Shown here in pieces: positions 9,831 to 16,019 of a stretch of 64,000 bases of DNA. The DNA is from Leptospira sp. (GTDB taxonomy: Bacteria > Spirochaetota > Leptospiria > Leptospirales > Leptospiraceae): NCBI GenBank assembly GCA_034439575.1, contig JAWXAQ010000022.1, positions 32,001 to 96,000 on the forward strand, in the 5' to 3' direction. The translations under genes and the position numbers were made by a program. Numbering within the stretch: position 1 is the stretch's first letter; each line of letters starts with the position of its first letter. The notes beneath the pieces are model-generated. The model did no database searches. It had not been told where the DNA came from and saw only the letters and a list, made by a program, of their open reading frames with translations.

Positions 9831-11690
9831 TTATAATTCCACTAACAAAACAGTAATATCATCTGATATAGGTGAGCGTTTTTTGTTTAAAGAATTTATA
9901 ATCTCAGTTATATAATTTTCTGATGATTTGTTTTTTAGTTCTCGCATTACTTCGATTAGAACTTCGGTAGAAGTGTTTTCTATACTGATATCATCATTTA
10001 ATCCATCCGTATAAAATAAGAGTTTATCACCTTTTTCTAAATTTAAAGTATAAAGATTATAATCTACATGGGTTATAAATCCCAATAGAAATCCTTCTGA
10101 TTCTAAAGGAACAATTTGATCCTTGCGAATCAATATAATCGGCGGATGACCAGCAGTCGCGAAGGTCATTTTCCCATTCTGTAAATCTATATATGAATAT
10201 ACGGCACTCACAAACCTTTGGTCTAGAGTTTCCAATAGAAATTGATTCATATTGGATAGTAATTTGTTTGGTGAATGCATCCATTGTTTCTCATTTCGAA
10301 ATGCAATTTTGACAGTTGATGAGTCCATAGCTGCACTCACTCCGTGACCTGTTACATCGGCGAGTAATATCCCGAGTTTATTCTCATCAAATTCATGGAA
10401 GTCATAAAAATCTCCTCCGACTGCATGTAGCGGAAGATAGGTGACAGAGATTTTGGCATCAAAAACTTTAGGTATATGTAATGGTAAAATTCGATTTTGA
10501 ATTTTTCTTGCTACATCCAAATCTTTTTCGATTAATAAAAGTTTGGCGTTTACTCTTTCTTTTTCTAGAGTAAGACTTTTGATCCTTCGACCAATTGCTA
10601 TTGAGAATAATATCACTTCTAATAGTGAGGAGAGTTGGGTTCCAAATCGCCCAAGCCAGAATTCCATGGGAATATATCCCAAGTTAGTTAAAGTTTCCAG
10701 CAAAACACCAATTGTGACAATGATCCATGCCAGGAGAAAAAATTCAGATTGTTTGACTCCCTTATTGTAACCATAAACCGCACTAATGATCATCAATAAG
10801 GATCCCAATGGTAAAAATACATTCATTGATCGTACCATCAGCCCAAAGTCCAAGAAGGGAGAAATGATAGCCATACCTAATGAAAAGTAGGCGGAATAAC
10901 TTAGGATCTTGGCCCACCTGACATTGAATTTGGAAATTTCCAAAAATTCATTCGTAAATTGTAAAACCGAAAAAATTGTCAGATAAGATACTATAAATAA
11001 TCCAGGTTTTATAAAAAAAGTATGATTTGGTGTAAAGAATTGTTTCAAAAATCCACCTAATATCAAATAAACGAAAAAGACAGATAGAATATAAGAACAA
11101 TAGTATAAAAAACTCCTTTCCCTTATGGAATAATAGATAAATAAATTATAAAATAAGAGTGAGATCATGGCTCCAAAATATAAGCCATGGATGATATATT
11201 CACCTTGCGTTTTGTTGATAAAATCTGTTTCATTCCAGATTCGGAGTGGGGCAGTGAGGAGTCCTGAGTTCGAAAGTTTAAAATAAATATCAGTGATTTC
11301 TTTAGGAGCTAGTTTGATTCGAAAACAGGGATTTCTATGAAAGATTTGGTTATTTTTGGGATTTGAAAATACTCCTGACTTTTCTTTAAAAATTAAATTT
11401 CCATTCGTCACTTGGTAGTATTCTATATGATCCAAATAGGAAACGCCCAATTCTAAAATGAATACCTGCTCTAAGTTAGTTGTATTTTCTAGTTTTGTTT
11501 TGACCCAAAGCGGAGGACGACTCGTTCCAAAATTTTGTATACCTTTTCCCACTTCCACCCAATCATTTTCGAATGTGGAAAGTTTTTCAAATGGGATATC
11601 CATATCTAATATCGATAGGTTCGGTCGATTTATATTTGCATTGCACTGAAATAAAAATAAGGAAATGAAAAGGCTAAATAATAATTTCAT
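9831..11690 (-). CDS. 7TM-DISM sensor fused to a SpoIIE/PP2C phosphatase
   Basis: DISMED2-like exported domain, seven hydrophobic helices (GLYFGAMISLLFYNLFIY...), coiled coil, then GGDFYD, ADVTGHG, AGHPP, YTDGL, DDIT. Confidence 0.9.
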   Translation of the reverse strand: MKLLFSLFISLFLFQCNANINRPNLSILDMDIPFEKLSTFENDWVEVGKGIQNFGTSRPPLWVKTKLENTTNLEQVFILELGVSYLDHIEYYQVTNGNLIFKEKSGVFSNPKNNQIFHRNPCFRIKLAPKEITDIYFKLSNSGLLTAPLRIWNETDFINKTQGEYIIHGLYFGAMISLLFYNLFIYYSIRERSFLYYCSYILSVFFVYLILGGFLKQFFTPNHTFFIKPGLFIVSYLTIFSVLQFTNEFLEISKFNVRWAKILSYSAYFSLGMAIISPFLDFGLMVRSMNVFLPLGSLLMIISAVYGYNKGVKQSEFFLLAWIIVTIGVLLETLTNLGYIPMEFWLGRFGTQLSSLLEVILFSIAIGRRIKSLTLEKERVNAKLLLIEKDLDVARKIQNRILPLHIPKVFDAKISVTYLPLHAVGGDFYDFHEFDENKLGILLADVTGHGVSAAMDSSTVKIAFRNEKQWMHSPNKLLSNMNQFLLETLDQRFVSAVYSYIDLQNGKMTFATAGHPPIILIRKDQIVPLESEGFLLGFITHVDYNLYTLNLEKGDKLLFYTDGLNDDISIENTSTEVLIEVMRELKNKSSENYITEIINSLNKKRSPISDDITVLLVEL

Positions 11691-11713: not shown

Positions 11714-12760
11714 TTACCATTTTTCCTTTTCTTCTGCAAAACTAAACTGCCTCATAATATTAAATCCCAGACAAAATTCTTTTTTAGTGGTATCAAAATC
11801 GGCACCACGTAGCAGTTGTGTGTGGGCGAGACTTCGCGTATTGGCAACAAAGAATTGAAATACATGGCCACCTGTTTCCAGATCAATTCCTATACCAATG
11901 GGTATAAATTTATGTTTTACTGGTTCATCTAAAATGATGTTTTTAAGTATTACTTCCGTTAAGCTAATTGATCCATTTGTCAAACCTAGATTGATCTGGT
12001 CTGAGCTAAGTTGTGTGATGCTTGTTTGGCTCGTTTTTTGTGATTCAGTGGTATAGTTTTCTCCAAAATAATCTCTTTTGGGTGTGAGGATGGTACTGAA
12101 ACTAAAATCCAAACGATTCGTAATTTTAAATCTGCCACTGATATCTAAACCGACGCGGGCATTGCCTATTTTTTCCTGAGTGAAATTTCTATGAACATAC
12201 ATAGGGGATGCTTGCACAGTAAAAGAGTCGGTCCATTTTCTGGAAATAAGGAGGGAACTTAAATAAGACCTTTTATCCTGATCACTCAAGGTATAAGTGT
12301 TGAGATCTCCATTGAGTTTAGTATCTAATACAGAATTTCCCGTCCAATTACGATTGAAATAATTATACTTATAACTTTGATCCGAAGTTTCTTGGCCAAT
12401 GGCTCCGAAAAAACTAATGGTTAGAGGGAATGAATCTTGCGAGATGATTTTATATTTGGTTCTAAGTTCCCAGGTTTTATCAGCAGATGTTCGTGCTATC
12501 CCCACCATAAGATCATCTGTAATGCCATAATCGAGCGCGAGATGAGTGTTTGCTCCATCATCTAATCCATAAAAATTTTCAAAACCAGATTTCGCATTTC
12601 CAAATCTATGATTGAAACGAAAGACTAAATTTTTTGCGCCAATGTTTTCTGTGCTTGGCATAAAAATAAGGCTAGATCCCATGAAATGTGTGTTTGTTGG
12701 TGTTTGTGCGATCAAAACACAGGGAAAGAATAACAAATTAATAATTCTAAAAATTTTCAT
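11714..12760 (-). CDS. Outer-membrane beta-barrel protein, DUF5777-like
   Basis: Signal peptide; FRFNHRFG, FYGLD, LDYGITD, GIDLETGGHVFQ, LGFNIMRQF motifs recognised as DUF5777-type. Confidence 0.75.
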   Translation of the reverse strand: MKIFRIINLLFFPCVLIAQTPTNTHFMGSSLIFMPSTENIGAKNLVFRFNHRFGNAKSGFENFYGLDDGANTHLALDYGITDDLMVGIARTSADKTWELRTKYKIISQDSFPLTISFFGAIGQETSDQSYKYNYFNRNWTGNSVLDTKLNGDLNTYTLSDQDKRSYLSSLLISRKWTDSFTVQASPMYVHRNFTQEKIGNARVGLDISGRFKITNRLDFSFSTILTPKRDYFGENYTTESQKTSQTSITQLSSDQINLGLTNGSISLTEVILKNIILDEPVKHKFIPIGIGIDLETGGHVFQFFVANTRSLAHTQLLRGADFDTTKKEFCLGFNIMRQFSFAEEKEKW

Positions 12761-13293
12761 TCTTTACTCCAAATTAGATTCACCTTAACTTTTATATCTT
12801 GATTTACTTTTAGAAAAACCAATTTAGGGACTTCAATATTATATTCACTCAAACGTATCGTAAAATAAGAAGTTTGTTCAATATCTGCACCTAACTTACT
12901 CAAATTTCCTGTGATTTCAACGTTTTCTTTTTTAACACCGTGCAATTCTAAACTACCTACTGTTTTAACTTCTCCTTCATTTTTAATCTCTAAAACTTTA
13001 CCAATGAATTTTGCCGTCGGGAACTTTTGAATTTCGAAATAATTGTCATGTAAGTGAGATGTTTGTAAGTTGTTGCTTGTGCGAATGGAACCGAGTGTGA
13101 TTTCTATATATATTTCTTTGGTATCTAGATTTAAGGTCCCTTTGACACCTTGGCCATCACCGTAAATAGATTCTAAATCCGTTTCTGATTTGAAAAAAAC
13201 TTTTCCCGATTTGACTTTCCATTCTTTGCTTTCTGCATACAAAGTACTAAAAAAGAAGACTGGAATAAGGATGATAATACGAATCATTTTCAT
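12757..13293 (-). CDS. YceI family (lipid/isoprenoid-binding beta-barrel) protein
   Basis: Signal peptide; HLHDNYFEIQKFPTAKF, GSLELHGVKK, YNIEVPKLV. ATG at 13293 overlaps the upstream TGA (ATGA). Confidence 0.85.
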   Translation of the reverse strand: MKMIRIIILIPVFFFSTLYAESKEWKVKSGKVFFKSETDLESIYGDGQGVKGTLNLDTKEIYIEITLGSIRTSNNLQTSHLHDNYFEIQKFPTAKFIGKVLEIKNEGEVKTVGSLELHGVKKENVEITGNLSKLGADIEQTSYFTIRLSEYNIEVPKLVFLKVNQDIKVKVNLIWSKE

Positions 13294-13724
13294 GGATTTG
13301 CACCACCTTGGATCCAACAATAGAGTGCTGAATCAATTGTAGAGTTTGAATAAACGGCCATATTCCCTCTAGATTGGATGATATACAAAGTGGAACCAGA
13401 AGCATTGCCTGGACTCGTAAATCCTTTCACCTGTGTGTAGTTACTTGCTTGGTAGCGAGTCGTTCCATCGTGACAACCAGACCTGCCACAACTTGTCTCA
13501 AAACCAGCCGCTTTCAATGTGGAGAATGTGGGAGAAGCTGTTGTGCAATTGGGAGATGCGGAAGATGTTTGGGAATTGGAACTCCTGGTTGTGATGGCAG
13601 AAACCAAAAAAGATTGCCAGGCTATTTCTTTTTCTTTGTCGCTCGCGGATGTATAACTACAGTTAAATGAAAATAAGAAAATAATAAGTGATAATTGGAG
13701 GAGTTTTTGTTTGCGATTTTTCAT
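13290..13724 (-). CDS. Lipoprotein with a CX4CH putative heme-c motif (paralog A)
   Basis: Lipobox FSFN-C; CGRSGCH; GNMA; YCWIQGGA. Confidence 0.7.
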   Translation of the reverse strand: MKNRKQKLLQLSLIIFLFSFNCSYTSASDKEKEIAWQSFLVSAITTRSSNSQTSSASPNCTTASPTFSTLKAAGFETSCGRSGCHDGTTRYQASNYTQVKGFTSPGNASGSTLYIIQSRGNMAVYSNSTIDSALYCWIQGGANP

Positions 13725-13743
13725 TTGATTCTATTTCGAATTT

Positions 13744-14199
13744 TTATTGTTTAGTCCCACCTAATATCCAACAATAAATCGCTTTATCAATGGATTGTGT
13801 GGTGTGAATTGCCATGGAACCAGTAGACTGAGCTGTGTACAATTTAGAAGTCGTCGGCGATGCACTTTGTGTTTGTGTGAGAACTTCTGAAATTACACTC
13901 GCACGATAGATACTCGCACCAGAACCACCTGTTACATGACAGCCAGAGGCACCGCAAGTAGACTCAAAGCCAGCATCCTTTAACGTGGAGAATGTGGGTG
14001 CTGAAACTTCACAAGTAGGAATTGGAAATTTTCCTGTTTGGCCCGTTGTATTTGTAGTAGAAGTTGCACCCGAAGAACGAGCCAAAACAAGAAGCCCAAG
14101 AAGAGTCTCATCATTTGATTCATCTTTCGGACTTATGAGATCGCATTGAAAACCGAAGAGGATCAAAACTAAAAATAAGTGTTTGTAAAAAAATTGCAC
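13744..14199 (-). CDS. Lipoprotein with a CX4CH putative heme-c motif (paralog B)
   Basis: GTG start after AAGGTAGG; lipobox FGFQ-C; CGASGCH; GSMA; YCWILGG. Confidence 0.7.
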   Translation of the reverse strand: MQFFYKHLFLVLILFGFQCDLISPKDESNDETLLGLLVLARSSGATSTTNTTGQTGKFPIPTCEVSAPTFSTLKDAGFESTCGASGCHVTGGSGASIYRASVISEVLTQTQSASPTTSKLYTAQSTGSMAIHTTQSIDKAIYCWILGGTKQ

Positions 14200-14294
14200 T
14201 TTGTAACCTACCTTATGTTTGTAAAATTTGGGATTAAATAAAACTTAAGACACAAAATACTGGTTCAATATTTTCTTAACAAGAAATTTTAATT

Positions 14295-16019
14295 TTAGTT
14301 AGCTGTTCTTTCAAATAATTTCTTGATATCGGGTAGCGAATCTCTTGTTACTTGTTCTCCCAATTTGATAAATTCGCTAGATCGCCAAAATTCAAACCAA
14401 TTGGAATTAGGTAAAATTGGGTTTAGATAAACATCTGCATCTTGGGCTGAATATTTCCCGATCCGGTATTGTAGTGAATAAAGGCTATTGACTATGATAT
14501 CCAAAACATTCAGGTTCAATAATTTGTTCGTTGCCATTTGGTCTTTAGAAGAGGGCATTGAATTCACAGCGATGATTCGCTCGACACCTTCGTGAGTCAA
14601 GGGTGACACAGGCAATGGATTCACTATCCCTCCATCCACATAGATTTTTCCGTTTTCTTGGGCTTGTGGAGAAAAAACACCTGGGATCGAAATACTTGCC
14701 ATAAGTGCGTCTAAAACCTTTCCTTCAGAAAGAACGATTTCTTTTCGATTTGTAATATCACACGTGATCAATCGTAGTTTGATTGGCAATTCTTCGAAGG
14801 TAAGATCACCTAAGTATTTTTCTAATAGATTTCTGACTTGTTTTCCGTGAAGTAATCCTTGGCCTGGAAAAGATAAATCTACTAGTTTGAACATTTTAAA
14901 AATCGAATCGATTTCATTTAACAGAGGTAATATGCCTTTATAACCTAAACCACTGGCCCAAAATGCACCAATCACTGCACCAATACTCGTACCTGAAATG
15001 ATATCAACTGTTAGGCCTTCTTCTTCCATAACCTTCATGATGCCTACTTGTGCCAATCCAAGTGCGGCACCTCCACCAAGGGCAATCCCAACTTGGATGC
15101 CTGAAAGTTCTCTCGCTTTACGGGTGATATGTGTATAGAACTTATTGTCACTTACACTAAAATCAATTTTTGTTTCACAATACATGGTATCATTTGATCT
15201 TTTTTCTTCGGAAAGAAATTCCATGTTCTGAATATCATTTTTATTAAATTCATTACCTACCAAATGATCAATGTTATCTGATTCATCAATCAATGCTTTT
15301 TTCAGATCTATAGGATCTTCTGGAAAAATTTCTAAAAAAATAAAAGAGTGGGTTGGATAATGTCGACCTAAAGTTTCTTTGATTCGATCCAAATCTCTAA
15401 ATCGATACGATTTAACTAAATCTGATTTATATTCATCTGGCATGGAACGCTGGTTAAAGCGGAGGATAATTACTTTTTTACCTGATTCTTTTTCGATTGA
15501 TTCTGCTAATTTAATAGAATAATAATTTGCCGCTAGTTCTGAATTATGGACAAAACAAATGACAGAGTTTTTAAAATACTCTCTGCTTCCTAGAAGTTCA
15601 TTTCGCAGAGTTTTTGTTAACATACGAGAAAAGGTAATGGATAGAAAGGGAATTTTACGAATTAATTCTTGGAATTCTCTTTGGTTTAAAACTAAAAAGC
15701 GGGATTCTGTAAGAGTTCGTACAGAATGAGAATGTTCTTCGCCAGTCAGTAGGGAATGGATGCCAAAGTATTCCCCTTTTTTTAAAATTTGAAGTTCCTC
15801 TTCTTTTGTTTCCCCTTTGGAAGGCAGAAATACGGATACAGAACCCGATAGAATCAAATATAAACTGTGATCTTTTCCGCCTTTTTTATAGAGCAATTCG
15901 TCTCGTTTAGCTTCCACAATTTGAACGGATTCGGCGATCCAAACCAATTCCTTTCTAGATAAACTACGAAATAATGGTAATCCAGAAACTAGGTGAATTT
16001 TGCCTTCGAGGTCTTTCAT
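14295..16019 (-). CDS. cNMP-binding domain plus patatin-like (NTE family) phospholipase
   Basis: N-terminal cNMP fold (LYLILSGSV, GEYFG); GGGAALG, GTSIG, DGG patatin motifs. Confidence 0.92.
   Translation of the reverse strand: MKDLEGKIHLVSGLPLFRSLSRKELVWIAESVQIVEAKRDELLYKKGGKDHSLYLILSGSVSVFLPSKGETKEEELQILKKGEYFGIHSLLTGEEHSHSVRTLTESRFLVLNQREFQELIRKIPFLSITFSRMLTKTLRNELLGSREYFKNSVICFVHNSELAANYYSIKLAESIEKESGKKVIILRFNQRSMPDEYKSDLVKSYRFRDLDRIKETLGRHYPTHSFIFLEIFPEDPIDLKKALIDESDNIDHLVGNEFNKNDIQNMEFLSEEKRSNDTMYCETKIDFSVSDNKFYTHITRKARELSGIQVGIALGGGAALGLAQVGIMKVMEEEGLTVDIISGTSIGAVIGAFWASGLGYKGILPLLNEIDSIFKMFKLVDLSFPGQGLLHGKQVRNLLEKYLGDLTFEELPIKLRLITCDITNRKEIVLSEGKVLDALMASISIPGVFSPQAQENGKIYVDGGIVNPLPVSPLTHEGVERIIAVNSMPSSKDQMATNKLLNLNVLDIIVNSLYSLQYRIGKYSAQDADVYLNPILPNSNWFEFWRSSEFIKLGEQVTRDSLPDIKKLFERTAN

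Follow-up and report, generated by a model that had tools for sequence, protein, structure and literature searches.

The window analysed here is a 64,000-nucleotide stretch of a Leptospira genome (GenBank assembly GCA_034439575.1, contig JAWXAQ010000022.1, positions 32,001 to 96,000), and four genes on its minus strand encode exported proteins that, judged by their sequences, form a real, conserved and unstudied redox module of the cell envelope with a putative function. The first gene, lipoA (13744-14199), starts with GTG and encodes a lipoprotein of 151 amino acids, a putative monohaem c-type cytochrome that is 38% identical to its paralogue, the 144-residue product of the next gene, lipoB (13290-13724), which is a LIC11213-family lipoprotein and likewise a putative monohaem c-type cytochrome. 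Each carries a CX4CH site, CGASGCH in lipoA (residues 82-88; 13936-13956), the columns of which are invariant in alignment A1, and CGRSGCH in lipoB (residues 79-85; 13470-13490), followed by a proposed distal methionine of the GSM/GNM type, Met129 (13813-13815) in lipoA and Met122 (13359-13361) in lipoB. Both lipoproteins have five cysteines, comprising the lipobox cysteine (residue 19 in lipoA, 22 in lipoB), the CX4CH pair and exactly two more, and Cys60 and Cys136 of lipoB may form a disulfide. The third gene (12757-13293) encodes a YceI protein (PF04264) of 178 residues, counted from an ATG, with a Sec-type signal and no lipobox, and the fourth (11714-12760) a 348-residue protein of the DUF5777 family (PF19089), an outer-membrane barrel predicted to have 12 strands. 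The original prediction, made from the letters of the window, had described four exported minus-strand genes with two stop/start overlaps, and among them two lipoproteins with CX4CH and a later methionine, a YceI protein and a DUF5777 barrel; the open reading frame calls confirm the former, and the motif positions and the Pfam and NCBIfam matches agree with the latter.

The spacing of the genes suggests one operon-like unit. An ATGA at 13290-13293 joins the stop of lipoB to the start of the YceI gene, another at 12757-12760 joins the stop of the YceI gene to the start of the barrel gene, and only 19 nucleotides separate lipoA from lipoB. Purine runs resembling Shine-Dalgarno sites precede lipoA (AAGGTAGG), the YceI gene (AAGGTGG) and the barrel gene (GGAG), with a weak run ahead of lipoB. 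A promoter-like site, TTGAAA-17-TAAAAT, lies on the minus strand at 14286-14314, about 85 nucleotides upstream of the lipoA start, and matches the consensus at 10 of 12 positions, which is weak evidence. A consensus scan placed no terminator-like site inside the four-gene set or after it, though the scan as a whole does not rise above shuffled sequence (28 sites compared to 24.5 +/- 4.5 in shuffles). Together, the spacing and the absence of such sites suggest that the four genes are co-transcribed. A lone ATGA overlap is ordinary for operons, and the element above chance, as far as sequence comparison can tell, is the conserved linkage of these genes in other genomes rather than the overlap.

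To describe that linkage, species-representative genomes were scanned with a DUF5777 alignment, which gave at least 598 confirmed stretches, and the best 80 of these were analysed by calling all neighbours within four genes of the barrel with our own hidden Markov models and gene calls. Two of the 80 loci are from Leptospira and the other 78 almost all from Bacteroidota, covering many genera and several orders. A YceI gene lies near the barrel in 67 of the 80 loci (71 when counted at the level of open reading frames), a cytochrome of the LIC11213/PSCyt1 kind in 53, and a Rieske [2Fe-2S] protein with a leader resembling those of twin-arginine translocation (PF00355, 31.5 bits) in 28, such that a cytochrome and/or a Rieske protein is present in 72 and YceI together with a redox protein in 64. 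Only five loci hold none of the three, and in three of these five the barrel is no more than 350 bases away from a contig end. The order of the genes varies, with cytochrome-YceI-barrel, Rieske-barrel-YceI, cytochrome-barrel-YceI, YceI-cytochrome-barrel and divergent pairs all occurring, which argues for selection on the linkage itself, beyond inherited synteny. The interchange of cytochrome and Rieske protein beside the barrel points to one-electron transfer as the common activity. In a first sample of 24 genomes from the genus of the window, the same seven genomes hold the barrel and an adjacent LIC11213 gene, always in the order cytochrome-YceI-barrel, and the second tandem lipoprotein occurs only in the genome of the window (G000), G020 and G024. 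The neighbourhood expected from the original prediction, in which DUF5777 keeps company with YceI and cytochrome lipoproteins across phyla, is thus what these genomes contain.

Several other proteins were seen beside the barrels. A small Rieske protein with a Tat-like leader and a lipobox-like cysteine (for instance L031:5428-5865) lies directly upstream of the barrel in 25 loci, often in the cytochrome's place. A membrane-anchored protein with an oligonucleotide/oligosaccharide-binding fold (tRNA_anti-like, PF12869; for instance L033:7345-7773) is found in about 22 Bacteroidota loci and in none from Leptospira. A Reeler-domain protein with a CXXCH motif, sorted by the type IX secretion system (L046:2208-2981), stands just upstream of the barrel in four of the seven loci that hold it, and is a possible partner at the surface.

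The lipoproteins are most likely divergent monohaem cytochromes c of the FoxE/PSCyt1 type, a reading based on sequence profiles and predicted structure. The NCBIfam model NF047812 (LIC11213 family lipoprotein, LIC11213_lipo) gives 119.8 bits to lipoB, which is above its cut-off of 100 and makes it a member, and 94.3 bits to lipoA, which falls under the cut-off and makes lipoA a diverged paralogue rather than a scored member. A family profile built from 19 LIC11213-family members matched 629 representative proteins at E ≤ 0.001, in many of which the domain is repeated in tandem two to four times. In the 167 proteins that were fetched (18, and 149 from the 629-match profile search), the motif appears as CX2CH 186 times, as CX4CH 102 times and as CX3CH three times. 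Multi-domain relatives score over the cut-off for both PSCyt1 and Cytochrome_CBB3, and PSCyt1 aligns also to their CX4CH domains. Closer to the window, the orthologues at this operon position have CSNCH in three genomes of the genus and CX4CH in another four, one second copy has CX3CH, and L. weilii has CATCH. In an alignment of 77 single-domain lipoproteins (A4; 24% mean column identity) the lipobox cysteine, both motif cysteines, His85 and Met122 are invariant; the three rows left out for want of the two-cysteine pattern are single-cysteine forms (CxxHH or xxxxCH) that retain His85 and Met122. Some Bacteroidota neighbour proteins have CX5CH and CX7CH spacers, and unusual candidate haem sites of these kinds or with a single cysteine, with the histidine and methionine kept, were observed in L062, L083, L094, L099, P0046, P0052, P0084 and L013. 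A second, partial LIC11213-like frame with an in-frame TAG, probably a pseudogene remnant, was seen in a genome of the same genus (G001:C6:40970-41170; L028).

Comparison with solved structures gives a similar result. The broader lipoprotein profile matched FoxE (5mab) among PDB sequences at E 9.4e-5 over the whole domain, and the weaker rows were nearly all cytochromes c; the first, narrow profile (A1) had given only a chance antibody match in the same sequences. The AlphaFold model of lipoB has a predicted local distance difference test score (pLDDT) of 89.7. A Foldseek search of the PDB with the whole model returned nothing useful, and an exhaustive structural search gave PccH (4rlr; Z 6.4, root-mean-square deviation 2.5 A for 74 residues, over 63-144) and FoxE (Z 5.3 over residues 59-144) as the only rows covering the lipoB domain 59-144, both values being modest, as a Z below 8 can reflect merely a common arrangement. 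In the protein Atlas, PSCyt1 is annotated on 36% of the members of the LIC11213 cluster, whose structural neighbours are PSCyt1-type cytochromes. The machinery for haem attachment is encoded in the same genome, which has CcmF and CcmA/B/C, that is, System I of cytochrome c maturation (Ccm); ResB/System II was not found there, and two Cytochrom_C_asm matches considered as System II are in fact CcmF and CcmC. Widened sites of the CX3CH and CX4CH kind are tolerated by System I. Surveys of cytochromes also count both among haem-binding motifs (PMC10734462).

The YceI protein matches PF04264 with 57.5 bits (cut-off 23.7; E 2.7e-15) and has distant matches to solved YceI proteins. It is one of four encoded in the genome, and its gene is the only one with redox neighbours, the other three having none. 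Those neighbours are the lipoproteins and the barrel, with no adjoining gene for cytochrome b561; a search for b561 (PF01292) found no match anywhere in the genome, which is 99.98% complete. The presence of four YceI genes without b561, with redox neighbours only at the operon copy, favours a relay with a lipoprotein cytochrome. Proteins of the YceI family bind isoprenoid quinones, and time and again they are found coupled to haem proteins. YceI proteins bind lipids (PMC9113575), and a YceI-like X158 domain, which occurs with c-type cytochrome domains in Cbp2D, binds ubiquinone-8 (PMC8981238). For the Burkholderia pair BcnA-LcoA, quenching of lipid peroxyl radicals has been proposed, in which the b561 re-reduces a quinone bound to the YceI protein (PMC9113575).

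The barrel matches PF19089 over its full length (profile positions 1-247) with 210.3 bits against a cut-off of 23.1 (E 3.4e-62). A model made from 78 sequences, with pLDDT 92.9 and a predicted template modelling score of 0.85, has 12 long strands, with short turns on one side and long, helix-bearing loops on the other. Its best structural matches are 12-stranded barrels with Z 15-17.7, namely FapF (17.7, the top match), KdgM (17.6), the COG4313 channel 4rl8 (16.5), NanC (16.3) and LpxR (15.0), along with several autotransporter barrels (13-16); FadL-type barrels score lower (10.4-12.4). Residues invariant in the 78 sequences include Phe26, His51, His190, Asn192, Thr296, Gly298, His299, Phe333, Asn334 and Arg337. 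Going by strand order and the rule that periplasmic turns are short, the outer rim would hold His51 and His190, and a periplasmic turn His299, and strand periodicity is ambiguous as to how the invariant histidines are oriented. Conserved positions in the inward phase are mostly Arg, Lys, Asp, Glu and Gln.

Natural fusions join the two kinds of protein directly. In P0159 (434 residues) and P0229 (438 residues) a DUF5777 barrel is followed by a C-terminal LIC11213-like domain with CXXCH, GSM or GTM, and CWI, and from the usual topology of barrels this cytochrome would be expected to sit at the periplasmic end of the last strand. The same cytochrome domain is fused elsewhere to cytochrome b561 (P0145; one Atlas cluster), which links it to quinone-coupled modules. 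A metagenomic protein of 606 residues, P0240, was found to hold two complete DUF5777 barrels in tandem in one chain.

From these observations the set probably moves single electrons at the outer membrane. The specific reading we prefer, which we would give about an even chance of being right, is a one-electron relay at the outer membrane to a quinone-type lipid, with a cytochrome docked under the barrel and the YceI protein handling the lipid. Here lipoA and lipoB would be anchored by their lipids beside the barrel, facing the periplasm, and each would carry one haem, attached at the widened CX4CH by the Ccm system of the genome and ligated by His and Met. The YceI protein would be a soluble lipocalin of the periplasm, one of those that hold isoprenoid quinones. 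The cytochrome would dock to the barrel from the periplasmic side, an arrangement like that of the natural barrel-cytochrome fusions, and would there swap single electrons with a quinone-type lipid, which the YceI protein would ferry to the outer membrane or away from it. The likeliest purpose would be to maintain the proper redox state of a lipid-soluble carrier at the outer membrane, for instance for quenching lipid radicals; in such a protective role we have much lower confidence than in the general mechanism.

A number of points weigh against this relay. Pfam assigns neither lipoA nor lipoB to any family at E ≤ 1, a search of the genome with PSCyt1 (PF07635) likewise gave nothing at E ≤ 1, the structural Z values given above are modest, and haem on the LIC11213 family is a prediction from sequence and model. 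The best 80 loci are a biased, phylogenetically related sample of the 598 or more, and YceI is missing in 13 of them, so that the pair of barrel and redox protein may be the true core. A His/Met-ligated cytochrome c or a Rieske protein is often too high in potential for quinone reduction, which leaves the direction of electron flow, and even the link to quinone, uncertain. Finally, FoxE, the closest solved relative by sequence, oxidises Fe(II) (PMC10654088), which favours a reading in terms of metal.

The original prediction had likened the set to the porin-cytochrome conduits that cross the outer membrane, with uptake or redox handling of a hydrophobic or metal substrate as its alternative. 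The comparison with conduits does not fit: the barrel, with its 12 predicted strands, has no room for a cytochrome inside it as the MtrAB type would require, there is a single haem site per lipoprotein, and the set encodes no surface cytochrome. What survives of the overall interpretation is the exported gene set, the cytochrome-like lipoproteins and their conserved linkage, and the evidence agrees better with the redox handling of a hydrophobic substrate than with a conduit.

Among the other explanations, the one that fares best, though we think it rather unlikely, is a redox gate for a small solute, with Fe(II) as the leading candidate, which would cross a narrow polar barrel and be oxidised or reduced at its periplasmic mouth by a FoxE-like cytochrome or a Rieske protein, in the manner of a miniature, split counterpart of Cyc2. 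No solved protein other than FoxE, a dihaem cytochrome, gives a significant sequence match, and FoxE is also a top structural match; the inward-phase residues of the barrel are charged or polar and three of its histidines are invariant; two solute channels, KdgM and NanC, are among its nearest 12-stranded structures; and barrel-cytochrome fusions occur. Against this, the homology to FoxE is at the level of a domain family and does not carry function, YceI would be left without a role though it is found in 67 of the 80 loci, and the set holds no inner-membrane permease or oxidase.

Less probable again is uptake or export of a hydrophobic compound, in which a plugged barrel of the FadL/COG4313 type would pass a lipid, isoprenoid or aromatic to YceI and the cytochromes would merely modify or sense the cargo. 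The alignments to 4rl8 and to the FadL family do take in the N-terminal segment, from residues 30-33, and this segment ahead of strand 1 is conserved and confidently modelled; the protein LIC11211 has been modelled on TbuX/TodX (PMC5406399, PMC9586249), and lipid binding by YceI proteins would suit such a cargo (PMC9113575). However, a redox protein is near the barrel in 72 of the 80 loci, with cytochrome and Rieske interchangeable, which speaks for electron transfer as the core activity, the inward-phase residues are charged and not hydrophobic, and the FadL-type Z values lie below those of plain 12-stranded barrels.

We consider it very unlikely that the lipoproteins lack haem and that their Cys-X4-Cys-His and two further cysteines bind a metal or form disulfides, as parts of a metal-handling or thiol-redox module. 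The want of a Pfam cytochrome match in the window, the non-canonical CX4CH and the relatives with spacers up to CX7CH or a single cysteine would fit this, but orthologues in the same genus have the canonical CXXCH, the histidine and methionine are invariant, relatives score as PSCyt1 and Cytochrome_CBB3, and the domain matches FoxE by sequence and both PccH and FoxE by fold. Most improbable of all is a secretion pore of the FapF or 12-stranded autotransporter kind through which unfolded YceI, or another neighbour, would reach the surface, as the rank of FapF and of the autotransporter barrels, and the description of the Burkholderia YceI homologue BcnA as secreted (PMC9113575), are set against matches that are tied with solute channels and reflect a common 12-stranded topology, a holo-cytochrome that could not pass such a pore, and a fusion cytochrome at the barrel's C-terminus whose expected periplasmic position implies docking and not export.

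Returning to the outer-membrane relay, one can extend it to a more general proposal, which we find doubtful as it stands: that DUF5777 and a docked one-haem lipoprotein are a new and minimal outer-membrane redox device, different in kind from the large porin-cytochrome conduits, in which the 12-stranded barrel, with invariant histidines that by strand order would lie close to its two rims, passes single electrons between the periplasmic pool of cytochromes and the outer leaflet or the surface, a quinone held by YceI being the mobile partner. One possible use of such a device would be the disposal of superoxide or lipid peroxyl radicals outside the cytoplasm. If it were true, Leptospira and a large share of Bacteroidota would have an undescribed envelope defence or a side-branch of respiration.

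The distribution of the set in spirochaetes was compared with that of superoxide dismutase (SOD). DUF5777 was found in 31 of 301 Spirochaetota genomes, of which 23 are Leptospiraceae (22 of the 45 sampled, and the genome of the window), and the matches outside the family are weak. Named matches include the pathogenic L. borgpetersenii, L. santarosai and L. weilii. Within Leptospiraceae it occurs in 64 of 114 genomes, that of the window included, and by genus in 15 of 40 in g1 (the genome of the window left out), 22 of 22 in g11, 8 of 24 in g12 and 7 of 8 in g14. Fe/Mn SOD (PF02777) has no match in the genome of the window, 99.98% complete as stated, in a search that did not extend to Cu/Zn SOD or superoxide reductase, and is present in 35 of 40 genomes of the same genus. 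In g11 no genome of 22 has this SOD and all 22 have DUF5777, and in g12 the counts are 1 and 8 of 24, many genomes lacking both; several genera have both together (g136, 2 of 2 and 2 of 2; g139, 4 of 4 with SOD and 3 of 4 with DUF5777). In the genus of the window the barrel is present in four of six SOD-negative genomes, one of the other two being 67% complete, compared to 12 of 35 SOD-positive ones, and the four SOD-negative genomes with the barrel probably represent one clade. We thus rejected the module as a stand-in for superoxide dismutase, as the 114 Leptospiraceae genomes show no clean complementarity for the Fe/Mn type, the only one searched.

The genes around the set are less constant. 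A gene for a 7TMR-DISM/SpoIIE phosphatase (9831-11690, minus strand) begins 23 nucleotides past the stop of the barrel gene and may now be co-transcribed with the set. The four nearest syntenic relatives (G004, G016, G020 and L. ilyithenensis) lack it at this place, their barrel gene lying against a cysK-like gene, and from this comparison it looks like a lineage-specific insertion. Upstream, a gene for a cyclic nucleotide monophosphate (cNMP)-binding, patatin-like phospholipase (14295-16019, minus strand) adjoins the set in the same direction; it holds this position in the window and in the four relatives, in which the set thus sits between the cysK-like and cNMP-patatin genes, and is not there in other Leptospira clades. 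Both the SpoIIE and the cNMP-patatin genes were considered as parts of the set and rejected, as the flanks vary by clade while the core stays together. That the core is kept where the flanks differ indicates that the set, of three or four genes, acts as one unit.

The term 'DUF5777' was not found in the literature searched, in line with the earlier remark that no functional description was known in spirochaetes. In the parts of the literature covered, LIC11213 is named in work on reverse vaccinology, and of LIC11210, LIC11211, LIC11212 and LIC11214 only LIC11211 was found. By its locus number LIC11211 is probably the L. interrogans orthologue of the barrel, and in the available text of the two reports concerned it appears just as a vaccine candidate, modelled on FadL/TbuX (PMC5406399, PMC9586249). 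The set is core in one Leptospira genus (22 of 22 genomes) and widespread in Bacteroidota, and to know its function would be to have a role for a DUF, a lipoprotein family and one class of YceI proteins alike, and would show how bacteria without known conduits handle electrons or quinone-type lipids at the outer membrane. The natural series of widened haem sites, from CX2CH to CX7CH and including single-cysteine forms, should be useful for exploring the limits of cytochrome c maturation.

With known systems the set has parts in common and matches none, neither the YceI-cytochrome b561 pairs, nor Cbp2D/Cbp2E, nor the porin-cytochrome systems. The large conduits MtrCAB and Pcc, and Cyc2, resemble it in the genetic linkage of an outer-membrane barrel with c-type cytochromes, the two being fused in some relatives. 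Set against the strand numbers and domain order familiar from these systems, the barrel here has 12 predicted strands, each cytochrome has one haem site, the fused cytochrome is C-terminal and no extracellular cytochrome is encoded; the wide barrel enclosing a multihaem cytochrome that characterises MtrAB and Pcc is not what the set contains. Against chains of the FadL type, the fold used in the literature to model LIC11211, the barrel gives Z 10.4-12.4, compared to 15-17.7 for 12-stranded barrels, and it has a conserved N-terminal segment. Of the solved proteins, FoxE of Rhodobacter ferrooxidans (5mab) and Geobacter PccH (4rlr) are most closely related to the lipoprotein domain. FoxE is His/Met-ligated, and a disulfide keeps its C-terminus in place (PMC10654088); unlike the window proteins with their single CX4CH, it has two CXXCH domains, is no lipoprotein and is encoded in foxEYZ without a barrel or YceI.

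By analogy, the set would seem to stand nearer to YceI-cytochrome b561 and Cbp2D than to the large porin-cytochrome conduits. Cbp2D and Cbp2E of Cellvibrio japonicus, and the protein of the Saccharophagus X158 domain, are secreted proteins of several domains, carbohydrate-binding modules among them, and feed polysaccharide monooxygenases (PMC8981238), whereas here the proteins are separate and small, have no carbohydrate module and come with an outer-membrane barrel. In BcnA-LcoA, which belongs with the yceI-yceJ type pairs, a YceI-family protein likewise has a haem protein of electron transfer as its genetic partner, in a pairing conserved in many bacteria (PMC9113575). The set in the window, known from sequence alone, differs in pairing YceI with a lipoprotein of the c-type cytochrome kind (in many Bacteroidota, with a Rieske protein) rather than with an inner-membrane b561, and in the addition of a dedicated outer-membrane barrel.

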